DNA from: Escherichia phage vB_EcoM_3HA11 | Sequence record: MN342150 | Reading direction: 5' to 3' (one strand) | DNA: 64,000 nt | In this document: positions 1 through 13,731 of the stretch, in pieces | How the letters are laid out: each line of letters starts with the position of its first letter | Numbering within the stretch: position 1 is the stretch's first letter | Notes under the pieces: model-generated | What the model was told of the DNA's origin: nothing | The model's input: the letters and a program-made list of their open reading frames with translations, nothing else | Databases searched by the model: none | Program-made: the position numbers and the translations under genes

Positions 1-21
1 TCCCGCTTCGACGGGGTTCTT
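1..21 (+). terminator. Truncated rho-independent terminator hairpin at window edge (cccg..cggg followed by ttctt)
   Basis: Same sequence as the complete terminator at 2211..2235; window begins inside the stem. Confidence 0.35.
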
Positions 22-56
22 ATTATACCTTTGTTCATAAATTTTATTAGTTCAGG

Positions 57-64
57 CTAAATAC
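57..64 (+). promoter_or_regulatory. Late-promoter-like box CTAAATAC
   Basis: CTAAATA(C/T) motif recurs 20-40 nt upstream of the start codons of structural genes in this window; resembles the T4 late promoter TATAAATA. Confidence 0.45.
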
Positions 65-92
65 CCCATATTGGTCATCCTTTATGGGGTAT
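61..92 (+). promoter_or_regulatory. 5' leader stem-loop (ATACCCCAT / ATGGGGTAT, 9-bp perfect stem) overlapping the G-run just upstream of the ATG
   Basis: Perfect inverted repeat 61..69 / 84..92 with 14-nt loop, directly downstream of the CTAAATA box and 5 nt before the start codon at 97. Confidence 0.45.
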
Positions 93-96
93 TATC

Positions 97-2193
97 ATGA
101 TTTCTCAATTCAATCAACCACGCGGCTCCACTTCCATAGAAGTTAACAAACAATCTATCGCTCGAAATTTCGGTGTCAAAGAAGACGAAGTCGTTTATTT
201 CACTGTCGGTATTGATCTCAGTGGATTTAAAGTAATTTATGATGAGTCTACCCAACGGGCTTATTCTCTCCCTTCCGGTATTGTTTCAGGGACAACTGCA
301 ATTAGTCTGGATGAAAGAGCTATCCTCACTCATTCCGCTGGCTCTGTTGACCTTGGGGAATTAGCAGTAAGCCGCGAAGAATATGTGACTTTACCTGGTT
401 CTTTTAATTTCGGCCATACCATTAATGTGAAAAATGAACTTCTTGTTCACGATGATGAAAAATATCGATGGGATGGTTCTTTGCCAAAGATAGTTGCCGC
501 TGGTTCTACACCTGAAACATCTGGTGGCGTTGGTATTGGTACATGGCTGAGTGTTGGTGACGCAGCATTTAGACAGGAAGCCAACAAAAAATTCAAATAT
601 TCAGTAAAGTTATCTGATTATTCTACATTACAGGATGCAGCGACAGCAGCCGTAGATGGATTGCTTATTGATGTTGACTACACTTTTACTGCAGATGAGA
701 GTGTAGATTTTAGCGGTAAAGTTTTAATCATTGAATGCAAGGGAAAATTCATTGGCGATGGTATGTTGGTTTGGAATGGTTTGGGTGCGGGTTCAGTAAT
801 TAAGAAACCGCACATGCATACTAAAACTACGCCGTATACTGTTTACCGATTCGATGCAAACGGTAATTGGGTTACAGACCCAACACAAGTTCTGGCATCT
901 GTTCAGCAGCGTTTGGATGTTGGATATAAGCCAAATATTAACGATTTAGATATTTGGGACGACCTTCCTGATAATGTAAAAAATCAGGTTGCTGGTGCTA
1001 CTTTGCGAATAATGAGCGGCGATAATATCATCGTAGAGAACCCAGAAGCTACATTTGGTGGTTATCTATTTACTTTATGTAATAGGATTCTTGTTAAGAA
1101 TCCACGCAATTTTATTGCTTTGGAATCGGGCATTACATTTGAGAACCATCATACAACTGCATGGGGTACTGGCAACTGGGTTGTTGGGGGTGAGATTAAA
1201 TATGGCTCTGGTTCCGCTGTACTGTTCATTCGCAATGATGGTGGTACAGACCATGATGGTGGAGTAAGGGATTTAATATCCTATCGCGTTGGAGAATCTG
1301 GTGTTAAAACCTATCAAAATGAAATAGGTGGTCGTTCAGCCAGGAACTACCGTTTAGTGTTCGACAATATAACTACAATCCAGTGTTACTATGATGGTAT
1401 TGATGTTAATGCTGACACAGGGTCGCCAACTGAACGTGTGGATGACTACTCACTCGCAGAGTATCCATGGTTCCACCTACCTACTCAACATATCATCCGT
1501 AATATTATTACTCGTGATTGTATGGGGATTGGTGCTTGGTGGGATGGTCAGAAAAATATTATTGATAATGTTGTTACTTATGAGGCCCATAAGGAAGGCG
1601 TCTTCGATAGGGGTACTAACAATGATATTACTAACATTACTGTAGTAGGTGCGAATAAGGATTTAACTAACCTAAATCAGATTACCTGTGAGGGAGGTAG
1701 TAGACTTCGTGGTATTAACATCCATGCATATACTACACAAGGTTACGCTATATACGCTCCGTCTTCAGAAGTAAGTAATGTTTCCTGTGCTGGTTCCGGT
1801 ACTAAGAAATTACTATGTACCTATATAAGCGATATTCAGGGAGGTAATATCAATGTTCAGCATAGTGCCAACCAAATGACACTTGCAATGCAACCTGCTA
1901 TGGGTGGTACTACAAACCCATCTTTGCTTATGACGGCAGATTGCCAGGTTGCTACACCAGGGGGTGAGGCAAGTATTGTCAAGCTTTCGGCAATTCAGGA
2001 GGGTGTACGTGTAGGTGAGTTTCAGCTTAACCGCTTAGGCTTTAAGCATATGAGTATACCTGCTGCCCCTTTACAATTACCAGAGAGCGCTCTGGAACAT
2101 AATTCATCTATAGGATTCTTCTTCGGAAGTGACGGAGCATTGAGGTTGCTTGCTAAAAAACCAGATGGAAGTTATGTAACATACACACTTTAA
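97..2193 (+). CDS. Tailspike / receptor-binding protein 1 (shared N-terminal anchor domain, distinct C-terminal domain)
   Basis: 698-aa ORF; first ~130 aa nearly collinear with the N-terminus of the ORF at 5129 (GSTS..SIAR.FG..EVVY..LSG.KVIYD..TQRAYSLP..GSVDLGELA..YRW.GSLPK) while the C-terminal parts differ: modular tailspike architecture. Confidence 0.6.
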   Translation: MISQFNQPRGSTSIEVNKQSIARNFGVKEDEVVYFTVGIDLSGFKVIYDESTQRAYSLPSGIVSGTTAISLDERAILTHSAGSVDLGELAVSREEYVTLPGSFNFGHTINVKNELLVHDDEKYRWDGSLPKIVAAGSTPETSGGVGIGTWLSVGDAAFRQEANKKFKYSVKLSDYSTLQDAATAAVDGLLIDVDYTFTADESVDFSGKVLIIECKGKFIGDGMLVWNGLGAGSVIKKPHMHTKTTPYTVYRFDANGNWVTDPTQVLASVQQRLDVGYKPNINDLDIWDDLPDNVKNQVAGATLRIMSGDNIIVENPEATFGGYLFTLCNRILVKNPRNFIALESGITFENHHTTAWGTGNWVVGGEIKYGSGSAVLFIRNDGGTDHDGGVRDLISYRVGESGVKTYQNEIGGRSARNYRLVFDNITTIQCYYDGIDVNADTGSPTERVDDYSLAEYPWFHLPTQHIIRNIITRDCMGIGAWWDGQKNIIDNVVTYEAHKEGVFDRGTNNDITNITVVGANKDLTNLNQITCEGGSRLRGINIHAYTTQGYAIYAPSSEVSNVSCAGSGTKKLLCTYISDIQGGNINVQHSANQMTLAMQPAMGGTTNPSLLMTADCQVATPGGEASIVKLSAIQEGVRVGEFQLNRLGFKHMSIPAAPLQLPESALEHNSSIGFFFGSDGALRLLAKKPDGSYVTYTL

Positions 2194-2210
2194 TTTATCT
2201 TGAGCAAAAA

Positions 2211-2235
2211 CCCCGCTTTGGCGGGGTTCTTATTA
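2211..2235 (+). terminator. Rho-independent terminator (ccccgc-tttg-gcgggg + T-rich tail)
   Basis: 6-bp GC stem, 4-nt loop, followed by ttcttatta; 18 nt after stop of ORF 97..2193. Confidence 0.6.
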
Positions 2236-2266
2236 TACCTTTGTTCATAAATTTTATTAGTTCAGA

Positions 2267-2274
2267 CTAAATAC
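2267..2274 (+). promoter_or_regulatory. Late-promoter-like box CTAAATAC
   Basis: Part of a ~95-bp intergenic cassette nearly identical to 1..96. Confidence 0.45.
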
Positions 2275-2302
2275 CCCATATTGGCAAATCCTTATGGGGT
2301 AT
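2271..2302 (+). promoter_or_regulatory. 5' leader stem-loop (ATACCCCAT / ATGGGGTAT), second copy
   Basis: Same inverted repeat as 61..92, upstream of the ATG at 2309. Confidence 0.4.
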
Positions 2303-2308
2303 TTTCAA

Positions 2309-5074
2309 ATGACCAGAAATGTAGAAGAATTATTCGGCGGCGTAATCACAGCTCCCCACCAGATTCCTTTCACGTATAAATCAAATGTCGGTGGAGAAAC
2401 TTTCCTTTCCTTGCCGTTCTATCCTGTCACTGGCGTAGTCACAATTAACGGCGGCATGCAAGTTCCGTTAGACAACTTCGAGATAGACGGGAATACGTTG
2501 AATCTCGGGCGCGCATTGTCCAAAGGCGATGTTGTGTATTGCTTATTCGATAAAATTCTTTCACCAGAAGACACTGCCAAAGGCATCCGCATATACAAAT
2601 TTCAAGCCGTGGGTGGAGAAACTGAATTCACGCCTGACTTTACTTCTTATGGTGTACAGTCTCTTTATATCGGTGGCGAGTACAAAACTCCTGATATAGA
2701 ATATTCGTACAACAGTACGACTGGGAAAGTGTCTTTGCAAACTGCATTGACTGCAGGCGTTTGGGTAGTCGCTGAAATCTCTGTTAAACAACCGAATATC
2801 AGTCCGGCGTTTGACCGCAGTATTCAAGAAATTGCCCGTTCTGCTAATGTGAAAGACTCTGAAGTCATCGTTAGTACGGACACCATATCTTTGTTGGATG
2901 GGAAGAAAGTTGTTTATGACATAGCGGCACAAACCAGTTATGGTTTACCAACCATTCCTGATGGTTCTGTCATTTCTACGATCTCAGACGGGAAATTGAA
3001 TTACAACCCAGGTGATGTGCAGGTTGATTTGTTGCCTTTAGAAGATTCATTTATTAATGTGATAAACACTCTGGGGCGCAATGATGGTGCCAAGTATATC
3101 GGAGAATGCCATTCTGTTGCTGATCTCAGGAATACTGAACCCACTATGGATGGACAACGCATTATTCTTAAGCAACACACTGCGGGTACTCTTCTTGGTG
3201 GAGGGGTATTCCGTGCGTTAATTGATGGTACAGGAAAGACTGATGATAACGGTACTGTGATCAAAACTGTTGGCGGCGCAGCCTGGTTACGTGTTAATGC
3301 TGATAGAGTTAACCCATTCATGTTTGGTGCTTTGGGTGGTTCTAATGATGATACTATTCCAGTACAATCTTGTGTGGACAGTGGTAAGGCCACACAATTA
3401 ACTGGTATACATTACGTTAGCAATATCCAGTTAAAATATAATACGTCGTCTATTTATGGGTCTGGATTACATTACTCCAGGTTGCATCAGTTGCCTTCTG
3501 CTACTGGGAATTGTATTACCATAAAAGATACATGCTCCCTTATTGTATTAGACTCCTTTGGGGTATATGGCACAGGTGCACAACAAGGCACATCATTTAC
3601 TGCGGGTACAACAGGTATCTATATAGAAACTCCTTCAGGTCTCTCAGCCGATTATCCGTTCCACACTACCGCAGACCCAAGACGCGACTTGTGTATTTCT
3701 AAGGTCCATATAGCAGGTTTTGATGAATATGGGTTAAATATTGATAGTGGTAACTTTAGTGTTACTACAGATTCTCTTTTAGTCAACCACATCAATCAGG
3801 TGGGCGTCCGTTGTGCTACTACTGATTGGACTTGGACAAATATCCAGGTTAATACCTGCGGTAAACAATGTCTGGTTCTTGATGGTTGTGGTAATGGTCG
3901 TATTATTGGTGGTAAATTCATTTGGGCTAACTGGCAACCTTATGGTACAGTAGGACAGTTCCCAGGCATTACTATTAATAATAGCCAGAATATGGTTATT
4001 AATGGTATTGAGGTACAAGATTGTGGCGGGAATGGCATTGAGATTAGCGATTCATATTCAATTTCCATGAACGGATTGAACACCAATCGTAACGGCATCA
4101 ACGCTAACAACACTTTCTACAACATCGTATTTAACAAAAGTGATGCAGTTATCAACGGATTCGTAGGACTCAATTATGCCGCGAATAGTGGTTCAGGTGC
4201 TAACTCTAGTGCGGGCAATTTTCAGTTCCTGTCTAATGATTGCAGCGTCACCATTAATGGTGTGGTTGAGACTGGTTATATGGGCATTAACTTTATTGGT
4301 GATAACAATATTATCAACCCCACAAATTCCGACCTGAGCATTAACGGATTGGTTAATTATTCCAAGACTGGTTTGCAAACCATGAACGAGACCCCTACAT
4401 TTGATGGTGTTAGCACTACACCTGTTTATGTAAGTGTCCCATCTTCTGTAGGGCAAGTAAATGGTCTGAGACTATCACAAGCCAACAAAGATAAATTACT
4501 GTACTCAAGAACAGCAGGTCCAGAAGGTATTACCATGGCTGCTGTTGTAGTACCTACCATATCTGGAGCTGAAGTATTTAACTTCATGGCCATTGGTTCA
4601 GGGTTTAGTGATACATCCAACAGTCTTCATCTTCAATTAGTTATAGACGCTTCCGGAAAACAAACAATTGCTTTGCTATTGGGGGGCGATGGTACAACCC
4701 AAATTTTATCTGGGGATTTACCTAACGACCTTAAACTACAAAGTGGTGTGCCATATCATATAGCTATTGGTGCTAAACCTGGATATTTCTGGTGGAGTAT
4801 TCTTAATATTCAGACGGGTAAGAGAATCAGACGGTCATTCCGAGGCGCTTATTTAGCTGTACCATTTAATTCTATATTCGGATTAACTTCTTCATTAACA
4901 TTCTTCTCGGATAGCAATGCTGGTGGGGATGCCTGTTCTGGTGTAGGTGCTAAAGTGTATGTTGGTATGTTCTCTTCTGAGAATGATTATGTAGCTTCAC
5001 GGTACTACAACCTGATTAATCCTGTAGACCCTAATAAGTTAATTAGTTACCGTATATTGGATTCTTCTATTTAA
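2309..5074 (+). CDS. Tailspike / tail fibre protein 2 with parallel beta-helix-like repeats
   Basis: 921 aa counted from the ATG at 2309 (ORF track opens at 2294; start chosen by analogy with the first cassette copy where the ATG inside the hairpin is not the start); Gly/Asn-rich repetitive segments (..VINGIEVQDCGGNGIEISD..NGLNTNRNGINANN..) typical of pectate-lyase-like beta-helices. Confidence 0.55.
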   Translation: MTRNVEELFGGVITAPHQIPFTYKSNVGGETFLSLPFYPVTGVVTINGGMQVPLDNFEIDGNTLNLGRALSKGDVVYCLFDKILSPEDTAKGIRIYKFQAVGGETEFTPDFTSYGVQSLYIGGEYKTPDIEYSYNSTTGKVSLQTALTAGVWVVAEISVKQPNISPAFDRSIQEIARSANVKDSEVIVSTDTISLLDGKKVVYDIAAQTSYGLPTIPDGSVISTISDGKLNYNPGDVQVDLLPLEDSFINVINTLGRNDGAKYIGECHSVADLRNTEPTMDGQRIILKQHTAGTLLGGGVFRALIDGTGKTDDNGTVIKTVGGAAWLRVNADRVNPFMFGALGGSNDDTIPVQSCVDSGKATQLTGIHYVSNIQLKYNTSSIYGSGLHYSRLHQLPSATGNCITIKDTCSLIVLDSFGVYGTGAQQGTSFTAGTTGIYIETPSGLSADYPFHTTADPRRDLCISKVHIAGFDEYGLNIDSGNFSVTTDSLLVNHINQVGVRCATTDWTWTNIQVNTCGKQCLVLDGCGNGRIIGGKFIWANWQPYGTVGQFPGITINNSQNMVINGIEVQDCGGNGIEISDSYSISMNGLNTNRNGINANNTFYNIVFNKSDAVINGFVGLNYAANSGSGANSSAGNFQFLSNDCSVTINGVVETGYMGINFIGDNNIINPTNSDLSINGLVNYSKTGLQTMNETPTFDGVSTTPVYVSVPSSVGQVNGLRLSQANKDKLLYSRTAGPEGITMAAVVVPTISGAEVFNFMAIGSGFSDTSNSLHLQLVIDASGKQTIALLLGGDGTTQILSGDLPNDLKLQSGVPYHIAIGAKPGYFWWSILNIQTGKRIRRSFRGAYLAVPFNSIFGLTSSLTFFSDSNAGGDACSGVGAKVYVGMFSSENDYVASRYYNLINPVDPNKLISYRILDSSI

Positions 5075-5082
5075 AAATATAC

Positions 5083-5100
5083 CCCTCTTCGGAGGGTATT
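5083..5100 (+). terminator. Terminator-like hairpin (ccctc-ttcg-gaggg) after tailspike 2
   Basis: 5-bp stem with ttcg tetraloop followed by tatttac; weak T-tract. Confidence 0.3.
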
Positions 5101-5128
5101 TACTAGAGAAAAACAGGAGATTCTTATT

Positions 5129-7363
5129 ATGAATCCGCAATTTGCTCAACCAAAAGGTTCTACTTCAAAAGAATCGAACAAAGACAGTATTGCTCGTAAA
5201 TTTGGGTGTAAAAAGTCGGAAGTCGTTTATGCGAAATCAGGACAGTCCTTGTCTGGATATAAGGTTATTTATGACAAGGAAACACAGAGAGCGTATTCCT
5301 TGCCTGTAGATATTCCAGCAGGAACCACGGCTATTAGCCTTAGCGCCAGTGCTCTGCTTGTACACTCTGGGGGTTCTGTAGACCTGGGCGAACTAGCTTC
5401 CCAACGCAATGAATATAATGTATTACCTGGTTCTTTTACTACTGGTGCAATAGTATCCACAAAGAATGATGTACTTACCCACAATGGTATCCAGTATCGT
5501 TGGAATGGTTCATTACCTAAAGTTGTACCTCAGAACTCTTTACCATCCAGTGATGATAATTGGATTGGCTTGGGTGCTTCTTATCTGAAGGAACAGCTTA
5601 ACAGTACCAGTGGTGCATCCATGGTAGTACTGGCTAATGGCAAAACCATTGAAGAAGAATTTGCCGAAGAAGCTGCATGGCAGAACCAAGAGAATATGGT
5701 GAGAACCGTTATTCCTAATGTTTATCACCATATCCGTGGCGTTCAGCGTCACTCTGGTAAAAACTTAGCATGGTCTGCTCCAGACGTTGCTATTGATAAA
5801 CTTAACCCTACGGATACCGTCTTCTACCGTATGCCCCAGATTGTTAAAACTGGTGATGGTACTCTGATGATTTTCTGTAATGAGTTGCATGGTAACAATA
5901 CAGATATTGGTGCTACTCCAGATCAGCAATGTAATATCGTTATGAAATACTCCATTGATAATGGGTGGTCTTGGTCGGCTAAGGTAGTGGTAGCTAACTT
6001 TGGGGCTACGTATCAGAACGGTGAGATTGCTGCTGTGTATAACCCAGTAGATGGTCGGGTATACTGTTACTTTACTTCCTGCAAAGGCCAGTTGGGTTGG
6101 GGATACTCACAGCCAGGCAATGACCCTAATACATCATCCCAGATATATGTTACCTACTGTGATGCGGAAGCTCCTACTATATGGCGTACACCAGCTAACA
6201 TTACTGCTACCCTTAAGCCAGCAACGGCAGATTTTATCTGGACTTCACCAACTAAACCAGTTGTTTTACCGGATGGTAAGATGGCAATGATTGTGTCTAC
6301 CGTCACTGGTTCACGGGTTGATTCTTTCCTTACCATCATGAAGTATGACATTAAGTACAGCATGGACTACGTACTTAGTTCCGAAGAATCTGGTGGGGAA
6401 GTCGGACTGAACCTTTTGCCGGATGGTCGTATGGTGATGAACTCTCGTGCTTACCACACCACAGACCTTAAAGGGCTTCAGAAATTCTATATCAGTGATC
6501 ATCAGTTTAAGAACTGGCAGCACTTATCTGATTTAGTTACATCGGATAGTAAGGGTGACCTGGTTCCTATTTTTGATGGGGTTAATGGTGTTCTTACTTG
6601 GGCGTTTACTTGTGCTAATGGTGTAGGTGATAATTCTATTGGTCGTACTAACTACCGAGTATGGATTAGTCGTGACCTAGTTACTTGGGGGTTAGCTCCT
6701 ACTGGGGATATCAACACAAGTGATTCTGTTGGGTACATCGCATCAATGCCTGGTGGTGATGATGGTTATGTAATCTCTACATCTGAATCAGGTGGTTTTG
6801 GTGGTATTTGGTTTACTCAATGGAATGCTAAGTATATCCAGAACAGAAACTACAACCGCTATCACAAAGAGTTGCGAGAATTAGAGTCAGTAGATGAAAC
6901 AGCAATGCTCGCATCCGGCGCTATTCCTAACTACTCTTTTTACGTAAACAAAGACTCCAACCTAATTAACTTCAACCGCAACGGTACTCCAGTTAAGATT
7001 CAGCAATTGGGGGTTAGTCAGAATGCTGTTGATAAGTACACTACAACTCAGACCCTAGCATCTATTCCTGTAGATGGTGTTGATATTGTATTAGTCACTG
7101 GTTCCGGTATTACTCTTACCCTTAGTGGGTTTAGCGGTGGATATATGGGCCAGCGTGTGACAGTTATCTCTGATTCATCTGGTGGTGGGGTAGTGCTTAA
7201 ACGTGCTGATACAACATTGCCTACTGTAACGGACAGATTCCACTTTAATGTGGCAGGAGCCTTTACTGCTTTGAGGGTAGACTATGCAACTAAGATGATG
7301 GTTACTTTAGTTAAGACTCCATCTGGTTGGTTCACGGAAAGTATTGCTAACGTAACAATCTAA
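5129..7363 (+). CDS. Tailspike protein 3 with sialidase-like (Asp-box) domain
   Basis: 744 aa; N-terminus homologous to ORF 97..2193; Asp-box-like motifs SIDNGWSW and SRDLVTW as in BNR/sialidase beta-propellers. Confidence 0.55.
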   Translation: MNPQFAQPKGSTSKESNKDSIARKFGCKKSEVVYAKSGQSLSGYKVIYDKETQRAYSLPVDIPAGTTAISLSASALLVHSGGSVDLGELASQRNEYNVLPGSFTTGAIVSTKNDVLTHNGIQYRWNGSLPKVVPQNSLPSSDDNWIGLGASYLKEQLNSTSGASMVVLANGKTIEEEFAEEAAWQNQENMVRTVIPNVYHHIRGVQRHSGKNLAWSAPDVAIDKLNPTDTVFYRMPQIVKTGDGTLMIFCNELHGNNTDIGATPDQQCNIVMKYSIDNGWSWSAKVVVANFGATYQNGEIAAVYNPVDGRVYCYFTSCKGQLGWGYSQPGNDPNTSSQIYVTYCDAEAPTIWRTPANITATLKPATADFIWTSPTKPVVLPDGKMAMIVSTVTGSRVDSFLTIMKYDIKYSMDYVLSSEESGGEVGLNLLPDGRMVMNSRAYHTTDLKGLQKFYISDHQFKNWQHLSDLVTSDSKGDLVPIFDGVNGVLTWAFTCANGVGDNSIGRTNYRVWISRDLVTWGLAPTGDINTSDSVGYIASMPGGDDGYVISTSESGGFGGIWFTQWNAKYIQNRNYNRYHKELRELESVDETAMLASGAIPNYSFYVNKDSNLINFNRNGTPVKIQQLGVSQNAVDKYTTTQTLASIPVDGVDIVLVTGSGITLTLSGFSGGYMGQRVTVISDSSGGGVVLKRADTTLPTVTDRFHFNVAGAFTALRVDYATKMMVTLVKTPSGWFTESIANVTI

Positions 7364-7370
7364 AATACAA

Positions 7371-7396
7371 GCCCCCAATAAGGGGGCTTTCTTTTG
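7371..7396 (+). terminator. Rho-independent terminator (gccccc-aataa-gggggc + tttcttttg)
   Basis: Perfect 6-bp GC stem followed by T-tract, 8 nt after stop of tailspike 3. Confidence 0.7.
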
Positions 7397-7487
7397 CTAT
7401 GTCTCGTTAACCTGACAGGAACTGGAAGTTCAAAACTATCAGGTGGAGGAACTGGGTTTTTATTTCTATCTGTTTGTTGGCTGTATA

Positions 7488-7495
7488 CTAAATAT
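7488..7495 (+). promoter_or_regulatory. Late-promoter-like box CTAAATAT
   Basis: 33 nt upstream of the ATG at 7528. Confidence 0.4.
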
Positions 7496-7527
7496 CTCTA
7501 TAAAATGGCACTAGATGGAGCATCAAA

Positions 7528-10500
7528 ATGCAATCTACAAATTTAAACCGTCGCCCGTATTGGGATGACTGGAATCCTGGGAAACGTTTTTCACGGATTC
7601 TTTTTCGTCCGATGCCTATCAAGGTTCAGACTCGCGAACTGAACCAGATGCAGACTATTCTTCAGGATCAAATTGAAAAACTGGGCAACCATCTGTTCAA
7701 AGATGGTTCTATGGTTATCCCTGGCGGTCTGACGATCACCAATGCCGCAGTCTCTTTGAAATTCACTTTGGCGGGTGGTACTGAATTCACCGATCTGGAA
7801 GGTATTTCTGAACTCTACGTTTTGGGGAAAGACAATAACGCCAAAGCGCGTGTGTTGTCTCTTGAACGTGATCTGTCTGCTCCTGATACGATGTTGGCCA
7901 TCCTTGAGATGACTGAAGCGGGTAATGCTGACGGATTCCATGTTAACGATAATCTGTATTTCCAGACTTACGACGTGAATGATAATTTCATTCGTATTGG
8001 TTATGGGATCGCGGCTGCTGTAACTGGTTCTATCGTTGCTCGTATGACGAAAGGCGTTTACTTCATTCGTGGAATGTTTCTAGACGTTGATGACGCGACT
8101 CTCATCGTCGATAAAACTTCAAACACTTCTTCCCACCGTGTCGGATTTAAAGTCACTGAAACCATCGTGACTGAATCTGAAGACGAATCCCTTTATTCAA
8201 ATGCTCAGGGAACGATTAACTCCAAAGCCCCAGGCGCTCATCGTCTTCGAATAGATCTGGTTTTGTCTCGATTTGATTATGATGCTGTGGTTGAAGACTT
8301 TGTTGAACTGGCCAAAGTTCGTGATGGTAAAATCCAGTCTATGGTGACTCAGTCCACCTATAATATTCTGGAAGACACGTTGGCTCAACGGACGTATGAA
8401 ACCAACGGCGATTACAACGTTTCAACGCATCAGATCGACATCCGCGAACACCTGAAAGTCAATAACAATGGTGGTGTATTCAATGCTGCTGATGGCGGCG
8501 ACGAAAGTAAATTCGTGTCTGTAATGAAACCAGGTATTTCCTATGTTCGCGGTCGTCGTATCGAAAACGTCGGGGAAGAGTTGGTGATCGTTGACAAGGC
8601 ACGGGATACCGATGTCCTGAATAACACGCCTGTTGCAGTCGCTACAGGGAATTATCTGGTCACCAAGAACTCCAAAGGTGTTCCAGTAATATCTCGCACT
8701 GTGCGATACAAGTTATTGAACGCGTCCGGCGCTGCTCAAGCCACGGCGTTGTGTATATCCGCTGAACGCAATTCAACTGAATTCCGTCTGTACATGCGTG
8801 ATTTGGTTGTGACTGGGGACGCGTCCACTATCACCAAAGTATCTTATGAAGAAAGTGGTATCACCATGTTCTCTGCTGAACTGGAATCCAACCAGTTTAA
8901 CCAGAGTTCTATGGTAGACCTGATCTTCTCTCTTCCGGTCTTCGGTGTTAAAACATTAGCGCCAACAGGTTCCGTGGATATCAACTACACCGTTCTCCGA
9001 ACTTACAAAGTCACTCTGGACAATAGCGGTTCTGGTTCTATTTCAGCCCCACTGGGATATAGTTTCTCTCCTGAATTTTCGTTGTATTCTTCTGCGAAAT
9101 CCGATGGTTCAGAAGCGCAATTTGATATCTCTGGCTCTTTGTCACTGACTGGTTCTCCGGTGGGATCGGCTTTGCAGATTTCCCTGGGTAGCGGTAATGC
9201 TAACCAGTCAATCAATTTGCTGGCACTGATGATCCGCACTACGGCCACGATCAAAACGAAGACGATAACTGAAACCACAGAGTCTGTGACTTTTACTTCC
9301 CAAACCAGTAGACCTCTGGCAAATCACGATGGCTGGAAATTGGTATCTGTCAAAAATGATACCGGCGCGGACGTGACTTCGAGCTTCACCCTCGACGGTG
9401 GTCAACGCGATGCGGGATATTACAAGGCTAATCTGTTATCCACCGCTGGAGCCATTTCAGGGACGTATACGGTGGTGTATCAATACTTCGCGCATAGTTC
9501 GGGAGATTTCTTCTCAGCGGATTCGTATACTTCGATGGATTATAAAGATATCCCGAATTATACATCTTCTACATCAGGCGCGGTGTACGGCCTGGCAGAT
9601 AGTTTAGATTTCCGTCCGAAAATCACCAACGGAACTTCTGACACAGATATGGTTCGTCCAAACACTGCAGTTATTCTGGACACAGAATATTATCTGCCGC
9701 GTATCGACGCGATTTATCTGGCAGACAACGGTGTGTTTGGTGTGGCTCGAGGCATCAGTTCTAATAATCTGGCTTCTCCAGCAATCCCAGCGAACGCCAT
9801 GCGTTTGTATGAATTGTTGATCCCGCCGTATACACCGAATATTGATGATATCCAAATTCGAACTATTGATAATCGTCGTTATACAATGCGCGATATCGGT
9901 AAACTGGAAACCCGTATTTCCAATGTTGAATACTATACCTCTCTGTCACAGCTGGAATCTTCAGCGATGACACAGCAAGTGTTTGACCCCATCACGGGTA
10001 ATCCTCGTTTCAAAAATGGTATTGCAGCTGATCCGTTCAAAGACTTCCGGTTGATTGATGACTTGTCTGAAGATTGGATGGGTTCTATCGATACCGAAAA
10101 CGGACGTCTACGCCCGTTTGTACAACAGAACGTTGTTGACATGACTCCGGTTGGCTGGAACAAAGTGATGGATGGGATGGTGGTTTGTAATTACACACCT
10201 GAAATCTCAGTGAACCAAGAATATGCGACGACGACGATCAACGTTAACCCGTATGCAGTATTCAATTGGGAAGGTTTCTTGAAGATTAACCCGACCACAG
10301 ACTACTGGTTCGAAAACTATTATGTTGCCCCGCGTATTATTAATGAAACGATCAACACCCGTGGTACTGTACAAGAAGGTTCAGTGTACGGAACATGGCG
10401 GACTGTTTCTGTTTCTGATCGTGTTTGGGAGCCGCATGGTGCTGGTGGTGTGTGGTGGGGATATCGTTACCGCACGACTGTTTCTGCCCGTGATGTCACC

Positions 10501-12366
10501 ACATATACATACACGGACAAAACAACCACGACCATGACTGGTGAACAGATTGTGGAGACGCAAGTTATCCCATACATGCGCGAGATCGATATTTCTTTCG
10601 ACGCATCTGGACTGCGACCTTTCACTCGTATGTATGCGTTCTTCTCTGGTCGTGACGTCAATCTGTATTGCAAACCGAATGGTGGTAATTTCGGTGACCC
10701 AATCACCACTGATGCCAATGGTGCTGTTAAAGGTGTATTCCGCGTTCCACAGAACGATACAATCAAGTTCAACACAGGCGACAACGTGTTCCGCTTAACG
10801 GATAGCCCTGTTGACAGTAAATCTGCGGATGATACACTGACCAATGCAGAAATTGTTCATAAATCTTTCGGTAAGAAACAAGGTATTCAAAAGACCTTTG
10901 TCAACACTCGTGTCCTGGGTTACACTGCCAGTACTCGCACCGAAACCAGCACTTCTGAAGTTGTGGTCGACCAATGGCGTGATCCGATTGCCCAATCGTT
11001 TATGGTAGCGACTAAGAATGGCGGCGAGTATATCGAAGGCGTGGAAGTATTCTTCTCTACCAAGTCACGTGATGTTCCGATCACTCTGGAAATTCGCGAG
11101 ATGGAGAATGGCTTACCTTCTCATACAGTCATTACTCGTAAAACTTTGAACCCGTCTGAAGTGACGATCTCTACAGACTCTTCCGGCGGTACGAAGTTCA
11201 CCTTTGATTATCCGGTGTATCTGCAAGCATCGACTGAGTTTGCTATCGTTTTGTTGGCGAATACCCAGGATTACAACGCGTATATCGCGGAAATGGGCAA
11301 GAAAAACCTTCTGTCCAACGAATATATCGCCAAACAACCGTATACAGGGGTGTTCTTCACTTCTTCAAACGGTTCTACATGGTCTCCAAACCAAATGGCT
11401 GATATGAAATTCCGCATATATCGTTGTAACTTCGCTGCGGGACAGAACGTTGTAACATTTGATTCGAAGCTCGGGCCAAAACAACGTCCGTTGGGATTGA
11501 ATACTCTGAACTGCGTGAGTGGGTCTTCTGTTGTGACTGTGTTTGCACCTGGTCATGGTTTGGTTGCTGGGAACAATGTTACTCTTTCTGAATTGACAGG
11601 TGGTTGTGGCTTTACTCCTGAACAACTTAACAAAACGTTTACTGTGACAGATGCGAGCTATACTTCATTCAAGATTGATGTTGGCGCAGCAGCAGACAGC
11701 AACGGTCAGATTGGTGGCGACAACGCATCTTTCTTGGGAAATTATCTGGTTGATATGTTCTATGCCAGCGTTACCAATTCGGCTCTGGAAGGTTCAATAT
11801 TGAAACTGGAATATCGTTACCGCGATGCCACTTCAAACTCCATGTCGGATTGGGCTGAATTTGAAACTGATACTGATGTTGCTCTGCCGACTGAAGGTAT
11901 CTATCGCCAGGTTGGTGACTTCCAGATTCGTGCTACTATGACTCGTAGTGAAAACAACGTGTACACAGCACCGATGATTGATGGTGATGACCTAAGTGTA
12001 ATCTTCAACTCTTATGGCGTAGATCCTTTTGAAGACGTTTTCAAATATGTCACAAAGGACATTGGTTTCGATAACCCATGTTCGACTGTGAAACTGTTCT
12101 TCGGGGCGATGCTGCCTTCTCAATCCTCCATGAAGGTGCAGGTAAAACTGCTCCGAGCAGGGCAAGAGATGGATAGCGTGGATTGGGAAGACGTTACTCC
12201 AACTTCGCCTCTGGTTAACGACGGTTCTACATTCTTTGAATATGAGTATGATAAGACTGTGGCAAGCAACAATCCGTTCGTTGGACTGAAAGTCAGAGCA
12301 CTTGTAAGGGGGAACCGAGTTGCTCCTCCTTCATTCAAAGACTTCCGTCTTATTGCTCTGGCATAA
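7528..12366 (+). CDS. Large virion structural protein (1612 aa), probably tail fibre or baseplate associated
   Basis: Long uninterrupted ORF between the tailspike genes and the neck genes; Ser/Thr/Gly-rich; internal repeat of motif FKDFRLI (mid-protein and C-terminus); no enzymatic motif recognised. Confidence 0.4.
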   Translation: MQSTNLNRRPYWDDWNPGKRFSRILFRPMPIKVQTRELNQMQTILQDQIEKLGNHLFKDGSMVIPGGLTITNAAVSLKFTLAGGTEFTDLEGISELYVLGKDNNAKARVLSLERDLSAPDTMLAILEMTEAGNADGFHVNDNLYFQTYDVNDNFIRIGYGIAAAVTGSIVARMTKGVYFIRGMFLDVDDATLIVDKTSNTSSHRVGFKVTETIVTESEDESLYSNAQGTINSKAPGAHRLRIDLVLSRFDYDAVVEDFVELAKVRDGKIQSMVTQSTYNILEDTLAQRTYETNGDYNVSTHQIDIREHLKVNNNGGVFNAADGGDESKFVSVMKPGISYVRGRRIENVGEELVIVDKARDTDVLNNTPVAVATGNYLVTKNSKGVPVISRTVRYKLLNASGAAQATALCISAERNSTEFRLYMRDLVVTGDASTITKVSYEESGITMFSAELESNQFNQSSMVDLIFSLPVFGVKTLAPTGSVDINYTVLRTYKVTLDNSGSGSISAPLGYSFSPEFSLYSSAKSDGSEAQFDISGSLSLTGSPVGSALQISLGSGNANQSINLLALMIRTTATIKTKTITETTESVTFTSQTSRPLANHDGWKLVSVKNDTGADVTSSFTLDGGQRDAGYYKANLLSTAGAISGTYTVVYQYFAHSSGDFFSADSYTSMDYKDIPNYTSSTSGAVYGLADSLDFRPKITNGTSDTDMVRPNTAVILDTEYYLPRIDAIYLADNGVFGVARGISSNNLASPAIPANAMRLYELLIPPYTPNIDDIQIRTIDNRRYTMRDIGKLETRISNVEYYTSLSQLESSAMTQQVFDPITGNPRFKNGIAADPFKDFRLIDDLSEDWMGSIDTENGRLRPFVQQNVVDMTPVGWNKVMDGMVVCNYTPEISVNQEYATTTINVNPYAVFNWEGFLKINPTTDYWFENYYVAPRIINETINTRGTVQEGSVYGTWRTVSVSDRVWEPHGAGGVWWGYRYRTTVSARDVTTYTYTDKTTTTMTGEQIVETQVIPYMREIDISFDASGLRPFTRMYAFFSGRDVNLYCKPNGGNFGDPITTDANGAVKGVFRVPQNDTIKFNTGDNVFRLTDSPVDSKSADDTLTNAEIVHKSFGKKQGIQKTFVNTRVLGYTASTRTETSTSEVVVDQWRDPIAQSFMVATKNGGEYIEGVEVFFSTKSRDVPITLEIREMENGLPSHTVITRKTLNPSEVTISTDSSGGTKFTFDYPVYLQASTEFAIVLLANTQDYNAYIAEMGKKNLLSNEYIAKQPYTGVFFTSSNGSTWSPNQMADMKFRIYRCNFAAGQNVVTFDSKLGPKQRPLGLNTLNCVSGSSVVTVFAPGHGLVAGNNVTLSELTGGCGFTPEQLNKTFTVTDASYTSFKIDVGAAADSNGQIGGDNASFLGNYLVDMFYASVTNSALEGSILKLEYRYRDATSNSMSDWAEFETDTDVALPTEGIYRQVGDFQIRATMTRSENNVYTAPMIDGDDLSVIFNSYGVDPFEDVFKYVTKDIGFDNPCSTVKLFFGAMLPSQSSMKVQVKLLRAGQEMDSVDWEDVTPTSPLVNDGSTFFEYEYDKTVASNNPFVGLKVRALVRGNRVAPPSFKDFRLIALA

Positions 12367-12418
12367 ATAATGTTGAAAGGTGGGCGTAAAGCCCACCAAA
12401 CCAATAGAGGATAAAAAT

Positions 12419-12667
12419 ATGCGTGGAATGAAAGTACAGGGGCACGCATCCATGTTGAGAAGCAGTTCTTGCCCTGGCGCGATTATTTGCACCGATCACG
12501 CCGCTGGTATGGCTGCATTGCAAGCCCGTCAACGCAATGAAACCCGTGAAGCCACCATTGTTGAACAATCAAACCAGATATCTAATCTGGAGGCAACAAT
12601 CAAAATGATGGCCGAAAAGTTGGGGATTGAAATCCCCGAAGGAGGTCAGAATGGCGACGCAAGCTGA
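12419..12667 (+). CDS. Hypothetical protein
   Basis: Small ORF, start placed at internal ATG after an AGAGGA ribosome-binding site. Confidence 0.3.
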   Translation: MRGMKVQGHASMLRSSSCPGAIICTDHAAGMAALQARQRNETREATIVEQSNQISNLEATIKMMAEKLGIEIPEGGQNGDAS

Positions 12668-12992
12668 AAGAACGGGGCTTGACATCCGTGGTATCTTAAC
12701 CGCTGTCGTGGCTTCTGCATTGGTCTCTGCGGCATCATTCCTTTGGTTCATGGGCGGGATGGAAACGCGCGTGAATGTATTGGAACGAGATTCCAACAAG
12801 ATGGATCAAGTTCTTCAGAAAGTGAATGACATGAGTGAACGTATGGCGATCATGAATACTGACCTCGCATATGTCAAACAAAACATGGCTGAGTTAAAAC
12901 TCAATAGTAGCAGTCTTTCAGATGATGTTCGCACACTGCGGATTACTGTATCTGATTTGCAGCAAAAGGGGAATAACAATGGCCGTCAATAA
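12651..12992 (+). CDS. Hypothetical membrane-anchored coiled-coil protein
   Basis: Start after GGAGG; hydrophobic segment ILTAVVASALVSAASFLWF followed by heptad-like region. Confidence 0.35.
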   Translation: MATQAERTGLDIRGILTAVVASALVSAASFLWFMGGMETRVNVLERDSNKMDQVLQKVNDMSERMAIMNTDLAYVKQNMAELKLNSSSLSDDVRTLRITVSDLQQKGNNNGRQ

Positions 12993-13731
12993 GATTCGAG
13001 ACAAAAAATCTTTTATGAATTATGTCTTGCGTAAATTGGGCGCTCCTGTGATCCAAATTAACCTTGACAGTTCACAAGTCGAAGATGCAGTCGATGATGC
13101 TCTGCAGAAATTTTGGGAATATCATCGTGATGGTAGCCAAGATGCGTTCTTCCTGTACCAAGTTAAACAAGAAGATATCGACAAAGGATATATAGAATTT
13201 CCCGATGATATTGACGATGTGATTGAAGTTATCCCTGGACCTCCTATTGAGTCAATCGGAAACTGGGCAACTCCTCAATGGCAAATGGCTCAAGCAATGC
13301 TTGTCCCCAAAGCAGCGCTGGTTTCTATTCGTCTCATTGATTATGTTTCCATGCAACAACGCCTGTCGGATATCACAAGCGTCTTAAATGTTCGCCGTAA
13401 TTTTGTGTACAAGAAGTTCCAGCGACGCCTTTACCCGCAGTTTGCTGCCATTGTTGATGAAACCCTGGCTTTTCGTTGTTATCAAAATATCGATCCTGAA
13501 TCAGAAGAAAACGCTGAAGCATGGAATGATATGTGGCTGAAAGCATATGCAACCGCTCTCGTCAAACGGCGTTGGGCAGAAGTGCTTAAGAAGGCAAGAG
13601 GCATCCGTCTCCCAGGTGGTATCGAATTGGATGGTGATAGTATGTTCAGTGAGGCCGAGACCGAGATAGAGCGGTTGGAGGAAGAATTGCGTACTGGTCA
13701 GCAATACCCCATTGATTTCATGATGGGATAA
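12979..13731 (+). CDS. Neck protein, T4 gp13-like
   Basis: N-terminus (..VLRKLGAPVIQINLD..Q.EDAVDDALQKFWEYHRDG) resembles recalled T4 gp13 N-terminus (..[35 protein letters not shown]); position upstream of gp14/gp15/terminase as in T4. Confidence 0.65.
   Translation: MAVNKIRDKKSFMNYVLRKLGAPVIQINLDSSQVEDAVDDALQKFWEYHRDGSQDAFFLYQVKQEDIDKGYIEFPDDIDDVIEVIPGPPIESIGNWATPQWQMAQAMLVPKAALVSIRLIDYVSMQQRLSDITSVLNVRRNFVYKKFQRRLYPQFAAIVDETLAFRCYQNIDPESEENAEAWNDMWLKAYATALVKRRWAEVLKKARGIRLPGGIELDGDSMFSEAETEIERLEEELRTGQQYPIDFMMG

Follow-up and report, generated by a model that had tools for sequence, protein, structure and literature searches.

A Kuttervirus-type branched tailspike cluster in Escherichia phage vB_EcoM_3HA11 with a predicted GH33 sialidase-type module in TSP1-20

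Escherichia phage vB_EcoM_3HA11 (sequence record MN342150) was analyzed over a stretch of 64,000 nucleotides (nt), here called the window, which carries at positions 97-7363 a group of tailspike genes. We consider it highly probable that these genes belong to the branched tailspike cluster of Kuttervirus and encode TSP3-1, TSP2-1 and a GH33-fold TSP1-20, the putative receptor of the latter being a bacterial glycan that contains sialic acid or another nonulosonic acid. The C-terminal module of TSP1-20 is predicted to be a true GH33 six-bladed beta-propeller with a complete catalytic set. An earlier reading made from the letters of the window (the sequence-only reading) had called this protein sialidase-like, and sequence, profile and fold comparisons all led to GH33, with the catalytic residues conserved.

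Identity of the cluster

The first 12,400 nt of the window contain four long open reading frames (ORFs), all on the plus strand, at positions 97-2193 (698 amino acids, aa), 2294/2309-5074 (926/921 aa, depending on the start codon), 5129-7363 (744 aa) and 7528-12366 (1612 aa); the three ORFs placed in 97-7363 by the sequence-only reading are thus all present. In a megablast search of 50,697 phage records, the genome of Salmonella phage Guerrero (OP610151; Ackermannviridae, Cvivirinae, Kuttervirus) was 100% identical to window positions 1-7600 over their full length. The next-best matches were FrontPhageNews, Sajous1, AR2819 and others (98-99.8%), and 371 records, mostly of Salmonella or Escherichia Kuttervirus-like phages, matched this region in part.

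The Guerrero annotation lists a baseplate wedge protein, TSP4 ("tail fiber"), TSP3 ("tail spike"), TSP2 ("tail fiber"), TSP1 ("exo-alpha sialidase") and VrlC in this order. Accordingly, the arrangement characteristic of the Kuttervirus cluster, i.e. tsp4-tsp3-tsp2-tsp1 between the baseplate-wedge genes and vriC, is found here as well; the gene for TSP4 (1193 aa in Guerrero) ends just before window position 1. The ORF starting at position 97 corresponds to Guerrero gp172, that at 2309 to gp171 and that at 5129 to gp170, and gp170-173 have been typed as TSP1-20, TSP2-1, TSP3-1 and TSP4-9 (Harris et al. 2024, PMC10892097). Judged by sequence, region 97-7363 is therefore three of the four genes (tsp3, tsp2 and tsp1, in this order) of a known Kuttervirus tailspike cluster.

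For exactly the same sequence, that of Guerrero, the cluster with its modular logic is already in print, as is the sialidase annotation (PMC10892097). The sequence, gene order, subtypes and annotation described for Guerrero gp170-172 (PMC10892097; PMC8432352) are the same as here, without any difference. The Guerrero papers give no receptor for TSP1-20 and contain no analysis of its fold or catalytic residues. The latter two are provided here, and the fold and catalytic residues of the TSP1 C-terminal module, together with the relatives of this module, are all that the present work adds to the published record. Literature searches revealed no characterized GH33 tailspike and no work on a Kuttervirus sialidase beyond that of Harris et al., and no enzymatic data on the hydrolysis of alpha-ketosidic sialic acid linkages by TSP1-20 were found in the searchable literature.

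The general picture drawn by the sequence-only reading, a modular cluster with swapped C-terminal enzymes and several receptors for one virion, is the established model for Ackermannviridae and holds for the Guerrero-identical sequence (PMC11414711, PMC10892097). Three spikes with distinct modules are indeed encoded in the window; what that reading missed is the fourth spike, TSP4, which lies outside the window, and the prior publication. Rather than being non-enzymatic fibre folds devoid of catalytic residues, two of the modules match solved enzymes, and the third possesses a complete catalytic set.

Fold and catalytic residues of the TSP1 module

The sialidase-type propeller of TSP1 comprises residues ~205-573 (positions 5741-6847, plus strand) and was recognized by phmmer, profile searches, AlphaFold2/Foldseek and hhalign. 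Compared as a whole with PDB sequences by phmmer, TSP1 matched 8GN6/8FEB (E = 1.5e-9) as well as Sialidase26, 4FJ6, 4Q6K and NanH of T. forsythia. A profile built from eight members of the family matched 4FJ6 in the PDB with E = 2.6e-20, along with 6MRV and 4BBW, and 49 sialidase sequences were below 1e-3. The structure prediction proposed as a check by the sequence-only reading was run for TSP1 and resulted in a six-bladed sialidase propeller. The AlphaFold2 model, based on a 12-sequence alignment, had a mean predicted local distance difference test score (pLDDT) of 68 (~80 over residues 210-560). Among the 50 best Foldseek matches listed, all were sialidases, KDNases or a sialidase-derived design (probability 1.0), and the target-normalised template modelling score (TM-score) reached 0.77-0.80, as for 4J9T and for the single-domain enzyme 1EUR (M. 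viridifaciens).

Profile-profile alignment of the TSP family with 15 generic sialidases, which a search of 1.84 billion proteins had supplied, extended over the whole domain (hhalign; 327 columns, probability 99.94%, E = 5e-37) and lined up all seven canonical GH33 residues: R234, D259, E424, R440, R506, Y536 and E553. According to this alignment, R234 (in the motif YRMP, equivalent to RIP) is the first arginine of the triad, which R440 and R506 complete; D259 corresponds to the acid/base, Y536 to the nucleophile, E424 to the partner of this tyrosine, and E553 to the residue stabilising the first arginine. In the 12-sequence alignment, all seven are invariant or nearly so (at least 90%); in the eight full-length proteins, down to 34% identity, they do not vary at all, the homologues having YRIP or YRLP in place of YRMP. 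Their spacing in TSP1 (+25, +165, +16, +66, +30, +17) matches that in S. typhimurium NanH and T. cruzi trans-sialidase.

One of the TSP1 Asp-boxes is canonical and three are degenerate, each at its expected position. The canonical one, SIDNGWSW (residues 275-282), had been singled out by the sequence-only reading; it fits S-x-D-x-G-x-x-W and is the only such match in a six-frame translation of the window (~128,000 residues). The second motif named there, SRDLVTW (residues 514-520), lacks one consensus residue, yet it falls exactly on an Asp-box of GH33 in the profile-profile alignment.

The six-bladed propeller, the R-D-E-R-R-Y-E constellation and the typical catalytic spacing are common to TSP1-20 and the GH33 exo-alpha-sialidases (4FJ6 of Parabacteroides, BTSA 4BBW of B. 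thetaiotaomicron, 8FEB/8T1Y of P. gingivalis, 1EUR), with partial agreement in the YR(I/M)P motif and the Asp-boxes. TSP1-20 differs from these enzymes in being only 16-19% identical to them, in its phage TD1/TD2 head and fibre-type C-terminal domain, in the three degenerate Asp-boxes and in family-specific invariant stretches (FTSCKGQLGWGYSQ and QN at 296-297). As the full machinery of a retaining sialidase is conserved, TSP1-20 is likely to be catalytically active as a sialidase-type enzyme. It would act as a retaining GH33-fold enzyme using the arginine triad, the Tyr536/Glu424 nucleophile pair and Asp259 as acid/base, and the propeller would be followed by a fibre-type beta-sandwich. This last domain (residues ~583-744, positions 6875-7363, plus strand) resembles XD domains of phage fibres and is conserved throughout the family, and it may serve in trimerisation or glycan binding.

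We considered as well a GH58 endosialidase of the K1F type, and rejected it: no such enzyme was among the PDB sequence matches, the profile matches or the 50 best fold matches listed. Pfam detected no Peptidase_S74 chaperone domain in TSP1. The K1F, K1E and phi92 endosialidases are likewise tailspikes built on a sialidase-like beta-propeller and aimed at a sialic-acid polymer. GH58 enzymes are not known to have the Tyr/Glu nucleophile pair, which TSP1-20 keeps.

Distribution and relatives of the TSP1-20 module

The module (residues 161-744) is 99-100% conserved in at least 15 Kuttervirus records representing 13 distinct phages, among them ECML-4, FEC14, FSL SP-029/063, BPS3, ST2 and KEP4; TSP1-20 is the type of ECML-4 gp189 (PMC10892097, Table 10). 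Among other phages, the module shows no more than 26-30% identity to a few tail proteins, one of them from phage vB_EcoM-RPN242 (see below). In PHROGs, the C-terminal module forms a family of its own (phrog_35653), and the head matches 22 other tail families. Members of this family are rare: a word-indexed search of 5.8 billion sequences returned 12 proteins, and an exhaustive HMMER search of 1.84 billion cluster representatives ~30 relatives at E < 1e-10. A single locus with a relative was present in IMG/VR, and a degenerate-pattern scan of the GTDB species-representative genomes gave no relative.

The homologues (34-78% identity) are mounted on other anchors, i.e. a T7 tail-fibre N-terminus, other Tail_spike_N arrangements or coiled-coil-like heads. 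Named bacterial members come from Enterobacter hormaechei and the E. cloacae complex (many), Salmonella enterica, S. diarizonae, a few E. coli and Alcaligenes faecalis. In E. hormaechei, the homologue occupies the tailspike position of a podovirus-like prophage, behind T7_gp14-like and SLT internal-virion genes and ahead of holin and endolysin genes. In S. diarizonae (CP078142), a truncated 377-aa remnant of the module lies behind an insertion sequence transposase. At both loci (spike and acyltransferase at 10001-13503 in E. hormaechei and 10001-12461 in S. diarizonae), a 342-aa Acyl_transf_3 gene follows immediately 3', the two being 64% identical, and this layout of spike and acyltransferase looks like a conserved O-antigen seroconversion module. 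The tailspike position, the varied anchors and the prophage contexts speak for a genuine receptor-binding enzyme directed at a bacterial surface glycan.

A GH33-like segment is also present in a 1053-aa protein at the TSP4 position of Escherichia phage vB_EcoM-RPN242 (Aglimvirinae, a different subfamily of Ackermannviridae; 5369-8530). This segment shares ~30% identity with the first half of the Guerrero propeller and recurs in phages PC3 and PH4; modules with a sialidase fold have thus seemingly been acquired by Ackermannviridae spikes on more than one occasion. Furthermore, a Logan contig of a T7-like phage (ERR11172801_6553) encodes at 10001-11767 a 588-aa GH33 homologue (35% identical, Pfam BNR_2) in a gene of its own behind holin and lysozyme genes, besides a fibre gene of the T7 tail type. 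This arrangement resembles the dual spikes of SP6/K1-5.

Putative receptor and mode of action of TSP1-20

The receptor of TSP1-20 would be a bacterial O-antigen or capsule with sialic acid or a related nonulosonic acid in alpha-ketosidic linkage. Candidates are Salmonella O48, E. coli O24, O56, O104, O145 and O171, Citrobacter O37 and Enterobacter types. Subsp. diarizonae comprises many of the O48 serovars, and the module remnant in S. diarizonae is a weak pointer in this direction. N-acetylneuraminic acid (Neu5Ac) is a constituent of the O-antigens of all the Salmonella, E. coli and Citrobacter (C. braakii) types just listed, O48 being the only such Salmonella serogroup, and of Hafnia alvei (PMC9631793, PMC7685785). 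Neu5Ac-containing O-antigens thus occur in the same host groups as the TSP1-20 module.

Several points weigh against a sialidase-type enzyme with such a receptor. Pfam BNR models, which do hit relatives of TSP1, stay below threshold on the full protein, and its C-terminal module matches no Pfam family up to E = 1; the sialidase relationship therefore rests on the phmmer and profile searches of the PDB, on hhalign and on the fold search. The degeneracy of three of the four Asp-boxes, the RMP in place of RIP and the moderate confidence of the AlphaFold2 model with its 12 sequences belong here, too. A blastn search (distant mode) with the DNA of the Guerrero propeller found no match in 5,426 complete E. 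coli genomes, nor did the same search with the DNA of the Enterobacter homologue. In Sorensen et al. (2021, PMC8432352), the TSP1 subtype of ECML-4, FEC14 and FSL SP-063 has no host entry. We found no host assignment for the TSP1-20 subtype in the searchable literature either. Finally, known GH33 enzymes are exo-acting. In the above O-antigens, most of the Neu5Ac lies within the chain and bears a substituent at C4 or C7 (PMC9631793), so that an ordinary exo-sialidase would only trim the chain ends and would not depolymerise the glycan.

It follows from this conflict between exo chemistry and internal Neu5Ac that TSP1-20 would be either an unusual, endo-acting GH33 enzyme or a receptor-modifying one. 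To our knowledge, endo-type activity has not been described for GH33. In the first case, no GH33 sialidase (retaining, with a Tyr nucleophile) of a virion would have been functionally defined as an O-antigen depolymerase before TSP1-20, which would cleave at internal, C4/C7-substituted Neu5Ac (e.g. of Salmonella O48 or E. coli O145/O104); the acyltransferase encoded next to the prophage homologues would add O-acetyl groups to this sugar and thereby block superinfection. We put this forward tentatively, as a possibility about which we have considerable doubt.

In the second case, TSP1-20 would be an exo-enzyme that modifies or destroys a receptor by trimming terminal or side-chain sialic acid, after which another spike or a secondary receptor would be used. 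Precedents are gp63.1 of phage G7C, which deacetylates O-antigen, and the influenza neuraminidase, which removes sialic acid. The catalytic set revealed by hhalign is indeed the complete canonical set of an exo-sialidase, G7C gp66, part of such a system, has the same Pfam head domain, and in most O-antigens with Neu5Ac, each chain carries an exposed Neu5Ac at its non-reducing end (PMC9631793). However, the homologue appears to be the sole tailspike of the Enterobacter prophage, and a sole podovirus spike normally must cut through the O-antigen layer; we regard a purely receptor-modifying function as unlikely.

It is improbable to a similar degree that the GH33-fold enzyme acts on a 2-keto-3-deoxy-ulosonic acid other than Neu5Ac, such as legionaminic (Leg), 8-epi-legionaminic (8eLeg) or pseudaminic (Pse) acid, deaminoneuraminic acid (KDN) or Kdo, in an O-antigen or in a group 2/3 capsule. 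The arginine triad and the Tyr/Glu pair recognise only the anomeric carboxylate chemistry that all these sugars have in common, and KDNases of the same fold (7P1Q, 4M4N) are among the structural matches. The prophage homologues are found mainly in E. hormaechei and S. diarizonae, and O-antigens with legionaminic-type acids have been reported from these groups. In E. coli, 8eLeg, Leg and Pse are carried by O108, O161 and O136 (PMC7685785). Against such a substrate, the best sequence and profile matches of TSP1 are Neu5Ac-specific sialidases of Bacteroidales and Porphyromonas.

A catalytically dead, lectin-like propeller, or one that targets sialoglycans of animal mucin for adherence to mucus and has no bacterial receptor, would be in line with the lack of any host assigned to TSP1-20 despite 15 sequenced phages and with a fold best known from mucin-foraging gut bacteria, but we regard it as very improbable, since the invariance of the seven catalytic residues among full-length homologues down to 34% identity speaks for selection on catalysis, and the tailspike position in temperate phages together with the linkage to an O-antigen-type acyltransferase speaks for a bacterial glycan as the target.

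TSP3-1 and TSP2-1

The ORF at 97-2193 is assigned to TSP3-1 and is predicted to encode an endorhamnosidase of the P22/9NA type on a TD1/TD2 head. Its catalytic and receptor-binding module (residues 156-698, positions 562-2193, plus strand) is a right-handed beta-helix as in the P22, 9NA and Det7 spikes. TSP3 matches Pfam PF09251 (PhageP22-tail) with E = 1e-106 and 358 bits (cutoff 25) over profile positions 2-550 of 552, and its module aligns end-to-end with PDB entry 3RIQ (1074 bits, ~90% identical), which we take to be the tailspike of siphovirus 9NA. The Det7 (2V5I) and P22 tailspike structures are matched as well (E < 1e-90). Hence, the C-terminal module matches the P22, Det7 and 9NA endorhamnosidases over its full length, but it sits on a Kuttervirus TD1/TD2 head, whereas those spikes carry the head domain of P22 gp9 or 9NA. 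For TSP3-1, recognition of the Salmonella O:4/O:9 O-antigen has been shown or predicted (PMC8432352, PMC10892097), and the protein encoded here would accordingly be an endorhamnosidase for O-antigen of the O:4/O:9 type.

The ORF at 2309-5074 can be assigned by its sequence to TSP2-1, near-identical to CBA120 TSP2. It aligned with full-length CBA120 TSP2 (6W4Q) with 2052 bits, from MTRNV on. The beta-helix-like repeats noted in this gene by the sequence-only reading are those of a real, solved beta-helix: residues 251-926 matched 5W6P/5W6S, i.e. the TSP2 fragment without the N-terminus, with 1512 bits. This catalytic beta-helix of subtype TSP2-1 takes up positions 3044-5074 (plus strand). Ahead of it lies the N-terminal part for assembly, which contains gp10-like XD domains as well as a TD domain (2309-3043, plus strand; compare 6W4Q, and PMC11414711 for the roles of the XD domains), in which residues 23-266 match the gp10-like Gp49 and tail-fibre structures 9D83 and 9D80. 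As the specificity of TSP2-1 is for the O-antigen of E. coli O157 (PMC8432352, PMC10892097), this spike would be a CBA120-type hydrolase for that O-antigen.

The start codon of tsp2 deserves comment. The GenBank and longest-ORF start is ATG 2294 (MGYFQ...), located in the 3' arm of a repeated hairpin; the tsp3 counterpart of this codon, ATG 84, is out of frame. Position 2309, given as the start by the sequence-only reading, is where MTRNV, residue 1 of 6W4Q, begins. Because 6W4Q begins there, 2294 lies in a repeat and its counterpart at tsp3 is out of frame, 2309 is probably the actual start, and the deposited one is probably five codons too early.

Shared heads and assembly of the spikes

The "shared N-terminal anchor" of the sequence-only reading is the known TD1/TD2 docking head. 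It spans residues 1-155 in TSP3 (positions 97-561, plus strand) and residues 1-160 in TSP1 (positions 5129-5608, plus strand). BLASTP aligned the two N-termini with 88 identities in 163 positions (54%; E = 7e-50), far beyond chance, so that the homology of the module is real. "Almost residue for residue", as it had been put, is too strong, though: the identity is 66% over the first 100 aa and 62% over 130 aa. Beyond residue 165 it drops to 18%, i.e. to background, in agreement with the divergence described before. The 5' ends of the two ORFs are only ~56% identical at the DNA level; a recent duplication of the N-terminus was therefore rejected, and the two heads are old, diverged paralogues.

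The TSP1 head matches PDB entries 9D84 (Gp48), 5W6F (CBA120 TSP3), 4OJ5 (CBA120 TSP1) and 4QNL with E = 1e-47 to 1e-54, and residues 1-166 of TSP3 match the CBA120 TSP3 structures 5W6F/6NW9 with E = 3e-96; both heads match the solved heads of CBA120 TSP1, TSP3 and TSP4. Pfam PF18668 (Tail_spike_N, TSP1/Gp66) is found in both (E = 5e-27 for TSP3). Residues 348-490 of TSP4 form a TD1-like segment that is 51% identical to the TSP1 head. GTTAISL is present at residues 65-71 of both TSP1 and TSP3, and a motif of the GTTAVSL type has been suggested to be where recombination takes place (Sorensen et al. 2021, PMC8432352).

In the family model, the TD1 head of TSP1 docks on the gp10-like XD3 domain of TSP4, and that of TSP3 on its counterpart in TSP2 (PMC11414711). 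Given the near-identity of the proteins, the same would apply here: TSP4 would anchor the complex to the baseplate, TSP2 and TSP4 would be joined through their gp10-like XD2 domains, the TSP1 head would bind to XD3 of TSP4, and the TSP3 head to XD3 of TSP2. With polysaccharide-cleaving modules that differ from one spike to the next, one virion could work through several surface glycans. That a protein with this TSP1 module is part of the virion is known for phage Sajous1, in which gp139 ("exo-alpha-sialidase") was detected with 113 spectra by mass spectrometry of CsCl-purified particles (PMC10892097); the C-terminal module of gp139 (residues 161-744) is 100% identical to that of TSP1 here.

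Compared with the branched TSP1-4 complex of CBA120 (Plattner et al. 2019; 4OJ5, 5W6P/6W4Q, 5W6F, 5W6H/7REJ), the architecture is the same, TSP2 is essentially identical and the heads are homologous. However, CBA120 TSP1 (Salmonella O:21) and TSP3 (E. coli O77) bear beta-helix modules, whereas the TSP3 module here is of the 9NA/P22 type and that of TSP1 is a beta-propeller. The gp63.1/gp66 apparatus of phage G7C shares the Tail_spike_N (TSP1/Gp66) family and the docking of one spike on another, but it consists of two proteins instead of four, and its enzyme is an SGNH esterase and not a glycosidase.

Intergenic repeats and neighbouring genes

A 96-nt direct repeat is located upstream of tsp3 (positions 2-97) and again upstream of tsp2 (2212-2307; this copy holds the in-frame ATG 2294), both copies being on the plus strand and 91% identical according to a repeat search; no equivalent exists upstream of tsp1. 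Its elements are a hairpin resembling a terminator, an AT-rich stretch (TTCATAAATTTTATT) and another hairpin, ATACCCCATA...TATGGGGTAT, which overlaps with the ribosome-binding site and the start codon. The repeat may function as a regulatory cassette common to both genes, or it may mark a boundary of recombination.

Each of the four tsp genes is followed by a GC-rich hairpin with a T-run. A hairpin scan placed these structures (plus strand) after TSP4 at 1-16 (terminator-like, inside the first repeat copy), after TSP2 at 5083-5096 (short, GC) and at the end of the cluster, upstream of vriC, at 7369-7389 (strong, bidirectional, terminator-like); the terminator-like hairpin with a T-run after TSP3 is at 2209-2228 (plus strand) and has an 8-bp stem with six GC pairs. 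Within positions 1-7700, 17 terminator-like sites were counted, versus 5.1 +/- 2.0 expected from shuffles, and sigma-70-like promoters were under-represented (12 versus 20 expected).

Directly behind the cluster, the ORF at 7528-12366 encodes the 1612-aa vriC/vrlC product, which matches Pfam DUF4815 (E = 7.5e-61). VriC/VrlC is one of the proteins found in greatest amount in Sajous1 virions (311 spectra, PMC10892097). No tRNA or tmRNA gene (ARAGORN) and no Rfam family at the gathering threshold was detected across the 64-kb window. GC skew is positive almost throughout the window, which fits one dominant direction of transcription.

Significance

As the cluster had already been described, its discovery here carries little weight, and the residual interest lies only in the specificity of TSP1-20 and in its possible endo-activity. 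Note that the carriers of TSP1-20 include several phages that were isolated on, or proposed for the control of, Salmonella and E. coli O157. If TSP1-20 targets a Neu5Ac-containing O-antigen, it could serve as the source of a tailspike module for phages engineered for detection or therapy; according to their developers, phages of this kind are not available for E. coli O145 (PMC12737597). If endo-cleavage proves true, it would extend GH33 chemistry to the endo-cleavage of bacterial polysaccharides.

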